From a virus (Duplodnaviria > Caudoviricetes), in the IMG/VR virus record IMGVR_UViG_3300020440_001565, positions 9,619 to 73,618 of that record: a stretch of 64,000 bases of DNA, one strand, 5' to 3'. Under the pieces are notes generated by a model. The model ran no database searches. It had not been told where the DNA came from and was given only the letters and a program-made list of their open reading frames with translations. Positions 25,134-44,889 of this stretch are shown here, in pieces. The translations under genes and the position numbers were made by a program. Every line of letters starts with the position of its first letter. The first letter of the stretch is position 1.

Positions 25134-25171
25134 AATTATAATATACTATCCTTTCCTGTTTCTGTCAAGTA

Positions 25172-41139: not shown

Positions 41140-41327
41140 CCTTGGAACTTCAACCATGATAGATGATCAATAAATCATACCTCCATCCCAAGGACCACTC
41201 TTATACATATCTAATACCAGGTATGTAAGCCGGAGTGAGTATCCGCTCATGGTATCAGTCCATGTGCGTGGGTCTACACCAATATACCACTTCGCCCGCC
41301 TGTGGGTGAGCTGACCGATAAACGGCT
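41140..41327 (-). ncRNA. Candidate structured ncRNA downstream of hfq
   Basis: Gene-free; roughly 50% GC in the 5' half (hand count); nested stems AGCCG/CGGCT, ATCGGTC/GACTGAT, TGAG/CTCA, TCCTTGGGA/TTCCAAGGA. Confidence 0.45.
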
Positions 41328-41331
41328 ACTA

Positions 41332-41541
41332 TTATTTATTATGATTAGCCTCGTTTGAAACGGGCATAATAGTGGATACGGCGTGTTTATTCACTAATTG
41401 TGTTACATTATCACGTTCTAATAAGAAGCTCTTATCATCGTGTTCTGTAATTTTACCAATCAGCTTTATGCCGTTTACTAGGAAGGCTGTAACTTCTTTT
41501 TTCTCTGCTATTATTTTTTCGAAAAATGCTTGTTGTGTCAT
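41332..41541 (-). CDS. hfq: Hfq-like RNA chaperone
   Basis: Sm1 VTAFLVNGIKLIGKI; Sm2 QLVNKHAVSTIMP. Confidence 0.88.
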   Translation of the reverse strand: MTQQAFFEKIIAEKKEVTAFLVNGIKLIGKITEHDDKSFLLERDNVTQLVNKHAVSTIMPVSNEANHNK

Positions 41542-41618: not shown

Positions 41619-41903
41619 TTAGTCCGAACACAATCTCTTTGCAAACTGTAGTTTCTGGTATGCTTCTTCAACAATAGGATACCTTCTACGAAGATATTGC
41701 TCGTTCTTCTTTTGCCTCTCCCATTTGCGAAGTTTTCTTATCTGTGTCATATATGCTCCCGGAACAGGTGCTGAAGGTAAGTGATATTCTCCTCTATCAA
41801 ATAAATCTTTTTGTGCAGGATCTTTGAAAGAACCTTGATTGCTTTGTAGTTGAGATTTTAATTTTTTGATTTCTTCTTTTAGATCGTTTATCTCATCTTG
41901 CAT
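41619..41903 (-). CDS. Hypothetical protein
   Basis: 94 aa ORF. Confidence 0.6.
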   Translation of the reverse strand: MQDEINDLKEEIKKLKSQLQSNQGSFKDPAQKDLFDRGEYHLPSAPVPGAYMTQIRKLRKWERQKKNEQYLRRRYPIVEEAYQKLQFAKRLCSD

Positions 41904-42352
41904 TAGTTTCTCCTCATCTGCGAAATTTCAGTTGCCGCTTTTGAACCGTCTTTGTCATTTTCATCTGCAAATACTGGTACTAGATTGCTTTTATGCATCA
42001 TAGCAATACCAACTAGTTTACGTTCACCTGTGTATTGCATTGCAGGTCTTTTAGTAGCCGTACCAATACCGCTTGTTGAATTACTACTAGGGATATGCGG
42101 TATTTCTTTGCGATGGTTTGAATCTACATGATGCCACGGAGTACTAATGGCACGTGGCTCTGTTTTAGGTTTCCAGTTGCCATGTACATATTCAATATAC
42201 TCTGAAAGTTTCATTGTAGGAAGATTATGCTTCTTCCAAAACTTGTTTTGTTCACGCCAACCATCAACATAAAAAACATCAGGCTTTCTTTTGGCTTTCT
42301 TTTTCTTTTTAGTGTTTAAAGTGGTAAGACCACGTTCTAAATGCATAGTCAT
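41903..42352 (-). CDS. Phage hypothetical protein
   Basis: YTGERKLVGIAMMHKSNLVPVF motif. Confidence 0.7.
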   Translation of the reverse strand: MTMHLERGLTTLNTKKKKKAKRKPDVFYVDGWREQNKFWKKHNLPTMKLSEYIEYVHGNWKPKTEPRAISTPWHHVDSNHRKEIPHIPSSNSTSGIGTATKRPAMQYTGERKLVGIAMMHKSNLVPVFADENDKDGSKAATEISQMRRN

Positions 42353-42358
42353 AATATT

Positions 42359-42387
42359 ATTATATTACCTTCCTTAGAATATGTCAA
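42359..42387 (-). promoter_or_regulatory. sigma70-type promoter
   Basis: TTGACA-N17-TATAAT. Confidence 0.85.
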
Positions 42388-42848: not shown

Positions 42849-42921
42849 TGAGTACCTCTTTATTTTTATTATTACTGACTATAACATATTTTAGAAATAT
42901 GTCAACTGCTAATTATTAGCA

Positions 42922-43137
42922 GATCATGGGTCATATAAGCCAACCAATCTTATTCCTTCGGTGGGGAGCAAGTCAATTCCATCAACCTTAACGACTTGGC
43001 TCCCCCGGCTGTTAAGGTTGGGTAGTATCTATATTTCGGTCTATGATTCCCTGAGTCCTACCAGACTTGTAAATCCCTGTACTGTAGTTCTTATGGCATC
43101 CAGTACACCAAACCGTTACTTTTGCTATGTCATGATC
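42922..43137 (-). ncRNA. Candidate pseudoknotted ncRNA
   Basis: Own promoter (43162-43189); terminal GATCATG/CATGATC pairing; TGTACTG/CAGTACA stem; 10-bp + 12-bp H-type pseudoknot. Confidence 0.6.
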
Positions 43138-43161
43138 AACTCTCCTACTCTCTATATTTTA

Positions 43162-43189
43162 ATATTAACACAGAAAGCATATCTGTCAA
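43162..43189 (-). promoter_or_regulatory. sigma70-type promoter
   Basis: TTGACA-N16-TAATAT with TGn extended -10. Confidence 0.6.
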
Positions 43190-43205
43190 CCAAAAACTTA
43201 TAGAC

Positions 43206-43213: not shown

Positions 43214-43307
43214 TTTGTAGAAATATGAAAGCCCAGAACAAGCTGGGCTCTCAGTAAAGGTTGTATGTCGCCGTTGGGACACTATTACTTATAGGATATT
43301 AAAAATT

Positions 43308-44009
43308 ATGAGCATTGATGGTAAAAATATTAATGAATTAGATAGTGAGACACGTAAGCTTCTCTTTTCAGTAACAAATAGTTTTGATATTCAAAACTTT
43401 AGAATCATAAGAGCTGATATCAAATGGAGAGGTCATCTTGTTGTTGAAGATGGTGATTTTGTATACAAAATAAAAGATGGTAACAGTAATAGAAGATGTT
43501 GGAAACTTGTTAAAGAGTTTTTCGAAAATTGGCATGAACAATATTATGTGTCAACACAATTTCACGAAAACTGGATTTGTGAAAAGTTTAAAAAGTTGCC
43601 AGGACTGGGAGCTGACAGCTATAAAGATTTATCAAATCCTGAGACTGAATTATTTCGAAAAATGATTAACTGGCTTGAGGATGAAATAATAAGGATTGCT
43701 ATCAATGGATCTAAAATGAAAAGCAAAAGATATCCTACACAAGACTACATCTTAACTTGGTTTGATCCTAATATATGGAATATTATATACGATGAAAAAC
43801 AAGATAAGTTTACTCTTATTGACTTTGATCAAATTGATTGGATTGGCTATGATGCTTGGAAGATTGCTGTAACAGATATTATTGCTTATAACTTTGGACT
43901 CGACAAAGTATCAAAAAAACTATTTTCCGATTCTATTCAAAAAAAATTAATATTGGCTATCAACAATGACTTTTCATTGTCTAGCGGAGAAAATAATAAT
44001 GTCAGATAA
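43308..44009 (+). CDS. Kinase-like (APH/choline kinase fold) protein
   Basis: DPNIWNII...FTLIDFD. Confidence 0.55.
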   Translation: MSIDGKNINELDSETRKLLFSVTNSFDIQNFRIIRADIKWRGHLVVEDGDFVYKIKDGNSNRRCWKLVKEFFENWHEQYYVSTQFHENWICEKFKKLPGLGADSYKDLSNPETELFRKMINWLEDEIIRIAINGSKMKSKRYPTQDYILTWFDPNIWNIIYDEKQDKFTLIDFDQIDWIGYDAWKIAVTDIIAYNFGLDKVSKKLFSDSIQKKLILAINNDFSLSSGENNNVR

Positions 44010-44889
44010 AATAAAAGTAGCCTGGTTCGGTAGTAGTCATGTACAAGGCGGATATGACACTTATGCAGATGAGTACGATGATATCAATCCTTTTCATACT
44101 TCTCCACCTGGATATTTTCAAAAATTGTTCAACGAATCTGACGTAGTCAATTATGGACATGGAGGAACTGGCATTGATTATATGCAGTTGATTTTACCAG
44201 ATGTCTTAAAAAATAATAGGCCTGATATTGTGTATGCTGAAATGAGTACATTGTTTCGTGGATCTTTATATTATGCCATGGACAGATATGCTAGTGAAGT
44301 ACTTGACGGTACATGGTATAACTATTCAACAAGAAGAGGACTACATAATCCGGTAGTGCAATCACAATATCATAGCACATATGGTGACGGATTTGACTCA
44401 TTAACATCAGCTATGGTCAAAAAAGGTACAGAAGAATCATATAAAAAATACGTTAAACAAATGACAAAAGTAAATCGAGTTGATAGTATTGTACCAAGAA
44501 AAGTTTTCTTTGCAAATAGCGTAGGACGAGACTCAGTCGACTATATATCTGATTTAGTAATTTACTTCAAAAGAATAATTCAAATGACAGAGTATCTTGA
44601 ACAACATAATATACCAGTATACTGGTTTCCTTGGTCAAACAAAGACTTTTTGTTCTTAAAAAAAAACAAACAGGCTTGGAATATTAAGAAAAAATGTGAT
44701 GATCAAATAAAAATAGTAGATGGACTACAAAATCAAAGCTATTTTCAATATCTAAAAACAAAATATCAAAAAGACGTACATGATTCTTTTACTGTTGACA
44801 GAGCTCATGTACAACACAAATTTAACAAAGAAGCTGTTGATACATTTTTTGCACCACATTTCAAAAAATTATTAAAAATTACTTATTAA
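43999..44889 (+). CDS. SGNH/GDSL hydrolase-like protein
   Basis: FGSSHVQG, NYGHGGTG, C-terminal DRAH. Confidence 0.7.
   Translation: MSDKIKVAWFGSSHVQGGYDTYADEYDDINPFHTSPPGYFQKLFNESDVVNYGHGGTGIDYMQLILPDVLKNNRPDIVYAEMSTLFRGSLYYAMDRYASEVLDGTWYNYSTRRGLHNPVVQSQYHSTYGDGFDSLTSAMVKKGTEESYKKYVKQMTKVNRVDSIVPRKVFFANSVGRDSVDYISDLVIYFKRIIQMTEYLEQHNIPVYWFPWSNKDFLFLKKNKQAWNIKKKCDDQIKIVDGLQNQSYFQYLKTKYQKDVHDSFTVDRAHVQHKFNKEAVDTFFAPHFKKLLKITY

Follow-up and report, generated by a model that had tools for sequence, protein, structure and literature searches.

A double-pseudoknot RNA behind a two-codon open reading frame in large marine phages, a candidate leader of early operons

The locus and its transcription

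The window, as we call the whole stretch of 64,000 nucleotides that was analysed, belongs to a 73.6-kb IMG/VR viral record with an estimated completeness of about 20%. Close copies of the locus occur in many marine assemblies, Tara included. Nearly all genes of the window lie on the minus strand. The RNA described here sits in a 459-nt gap between a 103-aa minus-strand gene (42848-42537), which is the next intact gene after the RNA, and a pair of plus-strand genes that starts at 43308. The G+C content of the RNA region is 44-45%, against about 30% nearby. Farther downstream on the minus strand come a gene for a 149-aa basic protein (phrog_27048; 41903-42352) and, 1.4 kb from the RNA, a gene for a phage Hfq (41332-41541; PF17209, 62 bits). 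The plus-strand pair (43308-44889) comprises the sole two plus genes within a 55-kb minus-strand run, and no family was found for it. Strains with a 224-aa variant lack the second gene of the pair, the first then abutting a 229-aa gene, and the pair looks like a small mobile or replaceable module. For a 233-aa divergent gene, relatives outside the window's species group were not found.

Sigma-70-like promoters with a perfect -35 box precede genes and one tRNA across the window, always on the coding strand. The labels P1 and P2 are used here both for promoters and for helices of the three-way junction described below, and the noun is always given to keep them apart. Promoter P1 (43162-43189, minus strand) is of the sigma-70 type, with a -35 box TTGACA at 43189-43184, a 16-nt spacer with a TG extension, and a -10 box TAATAT at 43167-43162. 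All homologues of the RNA have a similar promoter at the same distance. Promoter P2, which together with its start spans 42870-42905 on the minus strand, serves the 103-aa gene. The stretch 43227-43198 repeats the spacer and -10 box of promoter P2 (77% over 30 nt) and may be a third, weaker promoter. Several haplotypes lack a 68-nt segment at about 43225-43290, in which a terminator-like hairpin lies on the minus strand (43253-43226); the repeat of promoter P2 comes just after it.

Parts of the locus were contained in 15 metatranscriptome runs, and contigs of four of these were compared with it. Contigs of the four runs cover the element, from 42877 to either 43140 or 43155, so the transcript that an initial annotation of this DNA had proposed from the letters of the promoter does exist. 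As the RNA evidence consists of assembled contigs, from which 3' ends and levels cannot be read, uncovered parts and contig depths were excluded as evidence of level or ends. One contig, from run X4, extends unbroken from 43155 to 42877, beyond the palindromic hairpin with which the transcript had been thought to close, and a loose adaptor sequence is joined to it directly at 43155. The same loose sequence stands at four contig ends of this run (43155, 42870, 42352 and 41327), and we take it to be the reverse complement of the template-switch oligonucleotide, a marker of RNA 5' ends. All four fall 6-8 nt downstream of a -10 or late-type box, which indicates that promoter P1 fires at 43155, 7 nt after its -10 box, and promoter P2 at 42870, both on the minus strand. 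The promoter of the RNA, first recognised from its boxes, thereby gains a mapped start. A promoter-only stretch, 43223-43339, has no RNA contig cover in three of the four runs, which speaks against carried-over DNA. Three runs share a contig end at 43140, 15 nt into the transcript, and one of these contigs is joined to a sequencing adaptor; this position may be a processing site, or an assembly break from strain differences at 43138-43139.

Constraint, homologues and fold

Eighteen loci of close relatives represent six haplotypes of the gap, and 14 of these loci, with all six haplotypes, were aligned over 2.7 kb. The alignment has 175 variable columns, none of them within the 231 nt from 42947 to 43177 (minus strand), and the flanks of this invariant block show indel variation among haplotypes. 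As judged from these strains, the RNA core is under strong nucleotide-level constraint. A nested minimum free energy fold of 250 nt is not exceptional (z = -0.97 against shuffles), a value that is uninformative because pseudoknots are ignored in it.

The 3' tail (42906-42948, minus strand) behaves differently from the block. What is left of a 29-aa ORF lies in it, as do one arm of an end-pairing stem (42928-42922) and a palindrome (42922-42906), and these features are not conserved in other clades. An indel of 46 nt falls between 42948 and 42947. Where the extra 46 nt are present (L008:1503-2000, L010:1570-2000 and L031), they complete a strongly hydrophobic ORF of 29 aa that follows the RNA immediately and has a good ribosome site of its own; the shorter form is that of the window and L016-type strains. 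Since the insertion creates the ORF elsewhere, the window carries a deletion that removed the start of that ORF. Several elements of the initial annotation lie in this tail and fared accordingly. The heptamers said to pair the two ends of the RNA are in the sequence, but the downstream arm is strain-variable and absent from other clades. A proposed alternative pairing, read as a switch, has its partner in the same variable tail, is likewise absent elsewhere and is not supported. The closing hairpin exists in the window as an 8-1-8 palindrome, but substitutions at 42916 and 42919 break it among strains and other clades lack it. The palindrome was also considered as an operator and rejected, there being no second copy within the window.

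The lead to divergent relatives was a loose-end contig in run X3 that matches only 43042-43075 and represents a divergent, expressed relative. Two initial exact-word scans returned no matches, because the chosen words differ in other clades. Four pattern scans, built on the hairpin of helix P3 and on the 5' motif, found the family in IMG/VR, with 41 stretches from the last scan, as well as in JGI metagenomes and one MAG contig. Altogether the divergent homologues occupy more than 50 marine viral and metagenome contigs, with 34 distinct sequences in about 10 clades. A covariance model, R1, made from five sequences and limited to nested helices, gives E values below 1e-10 for 40 loci, of which 34 differ in sequence. 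Conservation of helix P3 and of the 5' mini-ORF is partly inflated, as each served as a search pattern, although each pattern scan confirmed the element used by the other. Matches at L032, L043, L049, L055 and L064-L066 were discarded, being coding DNA that fits the pattern by chance.

The complete 328-kb genome G008 has a single copy of the RNA. In another complete relative, G001, also of 328 kb, the RNA was not found, and a weak R1 match there is coding sequence. Four relatives detected through the 103-aa protein (L002-L005, about 60% identity) lack the element both beside that gene and elsewhere in their records. Among species-representative genomes, the sole match is L063 (CAXDOW010000136.1), a contig of 5 kb that has the whole RNA, in its L033 form, and that belongs to the bin of a Flavobacteriales MAG. 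This is probably a phage contig that reached the bin through its composition, at best a weak hint of the host and no host assignment.

Searches of Rfam 15 with the window and with divergent members, L084 included, gave no match to the RNA: only tRNAs reach the gathering score, and at E values up to 10 nothing overlaps the RNA core (42963-43155) or the homologous region of L084. The classes without a match there include tmRNA, RNase P, 6S, SRP, known ribozymes and riboswitches, and phi29 pRNA; ARAGORN detected no tmRNA. This agrees with the initial annotation, which had not recognised the element as tmRNA, RNase P, 6S, SRP or a known ribozyme. When the region and two homologues were compared by BLAST with 50,697 deposited phage genomes, only chance matches were obtained, and no description of the family was found in the literature searched. 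A 2023 catalogue presents about 8,500 RNA candidates from IMG/VR, with motifs of at most 151 nt (PMC10690425), and may include a fragment of this family.

Judged by covariation, the RNA folds as a three-way junction with two pseudoknots. From 5' to 3' the order is helix P1, helix P2, helix P3, a linker, and the stems S1 and S2. The three-way junction occupies 43037-43115 on the minus strand, as do all features of the fold. Helix P1 (43115-43111 / 43041-43037) has changes on both sides in 5 of 5 pairs; helix P2 (43107-43101 / 43084-43078), which had been noted at the outset as an internal 7-bp stem, in 7 of 7; and helix P3 (43075-43045), which carries a nearly invariant internal loop, in 3 of 8. 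The apical loop of helix P3 (43062-43058) pairs with the linker (43025-43021) to make the second pseudoknot, PK-A, paired in 34 of 34 distinct sequences. Its window pairing, GGUAG/CUACC, is replaced elsewhere by GGUAC/GUACC and GGUUG/CAACC, with a GC pair turned to CG in 11 sequences and an AU pair to UA in four.

Directly after the PK-A linker comes the H-type pseudoknot. Its stem S1 is the perfect 10-bp stem of the initial annotation (43020-43011 / 42992-42983), with an 18-nt loop and double changes in all 10 pairs. Stem S2 pairs the loop segment 43005-42993 with 42974-42963, a complementarity that had also been seen from the window alone; here the duplex reaches -21 kcal/mol (z = -3.5 against shuffles). 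The same loop-to-downstream duplex recurs, with z between -2 and -5.5, in every clade except three, formed by about 11 different helix sequences. The exceptions, L027, L069 and L079, have no S2, and a U-rich run comes after their S1. Both S1 and S2 have thus been maintained in evolution through sequence change in many clades, as an H-type pseudoknot calls for. Pairing holds in 98.3% of cells across the 34 distinct sequences, and 27 of the 35 pairs have changed on both sides. The covariation score reaches 0.645, whereas shuffles score 0.184 and slid partners 0.05-0.12. For the nested helices, the counts come from an alignment that had been fitted to the covariance model. PK-A and S2 are not part of model R1, yet both covary. 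The mapped 5' end, the invariance among strains, the absence of a match in Rfam and the covariation in distant homologues together support the central proposal of the initial annotation, a promoter-driven, functional phage RNA with an H-type pseudoknot outside the known families. That annotation, whose listed features all occur at the positions it gave, had missed the three-way junction, the second pseudoknot and the two-codon ORF described next.

The two-codon ORF, the downstream genes and candidate functions

Upstream of the fold, a Shine-Dalgarno-like AGGAG (43142-43146, minus strand) stands 8 nt before the AUG of a mini-ORF, AUG-ACA-UAG (43125-43133, minus strand), that is conserved across the family. 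In every clade a purine-rich Shine-Dalgarno sequence precedes the AUG by 7-9 nt, the sequence of the spacer between them being variable. Most members use ACA as the sense codon, two clades UUA or UUG; in L073 four sense codons follow the start, and UAG stands at the same position. From the UAG to helix P1 runs a conserved spacer of 9 nt (43116-43124, minus strand), fixed in most clades, with 8 nt possible in the L028 clade. From the known footprint, a ribosome whose A site holds the UAG would extend to the base of helix P1 and leave it closed. The layout is that of a two-codon leader minigene, with a Shine-Dalgarno sequence, a start, a sense codon and a stop within a 5' leader. The transcript had been called gene-free, and indeed no minus-strand ORF of at least 25 aa lies in 43151-42906; the term overlooks the two-codon ORF, and it also does not suit most relatives, in which the RNA is the 5' leader of the next gene.

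That status follows from the position of the element. In most clades the Shine-Dalgarno sequence and start codon of the next gene come 16-38 nt after S2, which leaves no room for another promoter, so that read-through must occur. The element is always co-oriented with its neighbours, and with the short gap this marks the RNA as an early-operon 5' leader. The genes behind it are small, differ between clades and have no known family. In at least two otherwise different clades (L028, L045, L050, besides the window), a phrog_27048 homologue is a recurring neighbour, 0.4-0.8 kb downstream of the RNA. Seen as a possible riboswitch, which would have a conserved aptamer ahead of genes with a common metabolic theme, the RNA combines a conserved core with a variable 3' platform and precedes these diverse genes. 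U-rich runs follow S1 or S2 in several clades and leave room for partial termination, and hence for a free RNA as well; within 42906-42990 of the window, no terminator-like site is predicted.

The RNA had also been suggested to be a client of Hfq. A phage Hfq is encoded in G001 and G004 as well (loci L093 and L094), and is absent from G008. Of the two complete genomes, G001 therefore has Hfq without the RNA and G008 the RNA without Hfq, with no co-occurrence, and this does not favour the phage's own Hfq as the partner.

We put at somewhat better than even, roughly 0.55, the probability that this RNA of about 170 nt, a member of an undescribed but widespread family of large marine phages, acts in cis as an early-operon leader. 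The host sigma-70 polymerase transcribes it from promoter P1, starting at 43155. A ribosome would load on the mini-ORF and terminate flush against the folded core without opening it, and the leader would act in cis on the early genes that follow, setting their translation, mRNA survival or read-through as the minigenes of LEE1 and axe-txe do. The nearly invariant internal loop of helix P3 would be the likely docking site of a state-setting factor, whether ribosome, protein or small ligand. In the window lineage the 46-nt deletion took the start of the first downstream ORF, and the gene after it has promoter P2. Counting against a leader, the next intact gene of the window has a promoter of its own and the RNA is still invariant. 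There is also no common regulated product downstream that would point to a signal, and in L027, L069 and L079 the combination of S1 and a U-rich run looks like a terminator, which would make the RNA free-standing.

Translated two-codon minigenes that act in cis on the next gene are described from the LEE1 leader of EHEC (AUG-AAA-UAG; PMC3262186) and from axe-txe, where mg2 reads AUG-ACU-UAA and encodes Met-Thr (PMC8708949); how strongly the next gene is expressed depends in these leaders on translation of the minigene and on where its stop codon lies (PMC3262186; PMC8708949). The marine-phage RNA resembles both in having a Shine-Dalgarno-driven start and one sense codon in a long 5' leader, and it resembles mg2 also in encoding Met-Thr. 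Unlike them, it puts about 150 nt of covarying double pseudoknot between the stop and the next gene, its conserved distance is that from stop to fold and not to the next start, and there is no sequence homology. By analogy of layout, the two minigenes would be the nearest functional analogues. The pseudoknots of the T4 gene 32 leader and of the preQ1 and SAM-II riboswitches share with the phage RNA a hairpin loop that pairs downstream, just before an A/U-rich stretch and a ribosome site. The stems of the phage RNA are much longer (10 plus 7-12 bp), its pseudoknot is set within a larger fold, the genes downstream are mutually unrelated, and there is no Rfam match. Like lambda bar, HK022 put and viral shunt structures, taken up below, the T4 leader pseudoknot has no more than single traits in common with the phage RNA. 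To our knowledge, a two-codon ORF and a double pseudoknot at a fixed distance are not known together from bacteria or phages.

A tentative reading, possible but clearly the less probable, takes the element for a new ribosome-coupled riboregulator. A ribosome parked against the double pseudoknot would be shunted onward, or the loop of helix P3 would sense a ligand or protein; alternatively, the RNA could be a new class of riboswitch or ribozyme. Orphan structured RNAs with such covariation are rare, and past cases have been riboswitches, ribozymes or protein-binding regulators. A geometric likeness exists to the shunt of the cauliflower mosaic virus 35S RNA, a eukaryotic scanning mechanism in which a short ORF ends just before a stable structure. 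The phage RNA likewise has a very short ORF that closes a few nucleotides short of a compact structure, with the next start on the far side; the likeness is one of geometry only, and we know of nothing comparable established in bacteria. If the riboregulator reading were true, the fold would decide the fate of the early operon, and the hand-over would be the counterpart, in bacteria, of the ribosome shunting known from viruses. Ocean metatranscriptomes show the RNA to be expressed, and it is found in many uncultivated large marine phages, including one with a complete 328-kb genome, and it offers a route to how very short upstream ORFs and folds jointly control phage early genes. Since it can be cloned as a piece of about 200 nt whose promoter is of the sigma-70 type and whose ribosome site is standard, it should be amenable to tests in laboratory E. 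coli.

A free-standing small RNA acting in trans, which would end after S1 or S2, hit host or phage targets or titrate a protein, possibly with Hfq, and use its 5' ribosome site as protection from decay, we regard as rather unlikely. It would account for a promoter of its own in every clade, for the terminator-like S1 and U-rich tail in L027, L069, L079 and the L051/L067 clades and the U runs after S2 in several others, and for an RNA kept unchanged in the window lineage although the adjacent ORF has lost its start; the hfq gene 1.4 kb downstream would also suit it. Yet the next gene of most clades, without room for a promoter, requires read-through, the window transcript passes the hairpin to at least 42877, and no terminator is predicted at the 3' end of the RNA there. 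Moreover, Hfq and the RNA are not together in either G001 or G008, and beyond segments already paired no conserved single-stranded seed is evident. The position of the RNA immediately behind an early-type promoter, where a run of co-directional genes begins, would suit an RNA that modifies the polymerase in cis, as in processive antitermination by HK022 put, or a pseudoknot-dependent attenuator. Such an element would govern the reach of early transcription, and it would also be in keeping with the U-rich runs after S2 in several clades and the tandem promoters of the window, one with and one without the element. HK022 put, like the marine-phage RNA, is structured, follows early phage promoters immediately and acts in cis; it consists, however, of two simple stem-loops with no mini-ORF or pseudoknot, and shares neither sequence nor fold with the phage RNA. 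As there is also no likeness to other known antiterminator RNAs and no Rfam match, and as the conserved ribosome site and the fixed stop position would be left unexplained, we think such an element unlikely.

Catalysis is quite improbable. A new self-cleaving ribozyme or other catalytic RNA, with the double pseudoknot and invariant loop as its active site, would fit the compact fold with its invariant unpaired nucleotides, and the shared contig end at 43140, in one run joined to a sequencing adaptor, could be taken for a cleavage product. This position lies in a non-conserved part upstream of the AUG, strain differences at 43138-43139 alone can break assembly graphs there, the X4 contig is unbroken from 43155, and no known ribozyme class matches. 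The mini-ORF also recalls the lambda bar minigenes, phage-borne two-codon ORFs with a Shine-Dalgarno sequence on an early transcript, whose effect depends on a particular tRNA and appears in hosts deficient in Pth. A toxic minigene of this type, draining one host tRNA by drop-off of peptidyl-tRNA while the structure is incidental, would need just the strong Shine-Dalgarno sequence, start, single sense codon and stop that are present. It is a most improbable explanation, however, as the codon varies (ACA, UUA, UUG, and four codons in L073), so that no single tRNA is targeted, and as about 150 nt of covarying structure attached to the ORF would go unexplained. The stop is UAG, which is reported to be less toxic than UAA (PMC8708949). 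Finally, the plus strand has an ORF of 80 aa (42961-43203) with almost the same extent as the conserved block, and similar antisense ORFs exist in the closest clades. That this ORF encodes a protein, and that there is no RNA gene, has next to no probability: no family or homologue was found for it, it has zero synonymous changes among strains whose genes differ by 2-8%, it is absent in the L027, L028 and L051 clades, changes between clades are compensatory in stems and not codon-wise, and the mapped 5' end shows transcription of the minus strand.

Other RNA 5' ends near the locus

Two of the adaptor-marked ends of run X4 belong to neighbouring transcripts. The 149-aa gene has a perfect sigma-70 promoter (12/12; 42359-42387, minus strand), and the RNA 5' end at 42352 is the A of the gene's own ATG, so that its mRNA is leaderless. 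Promoters at 25168 and 31267 resemble this one. A second non-coding stretch (41140-41342, minus strand) lies directly after hfq. There the adaptor-marked 5' end at 41327 falls 6 nt after a late-type box, AATAAATA, that overlaps the hfq stop, and this end supports a second RNA starting directly after hfq.
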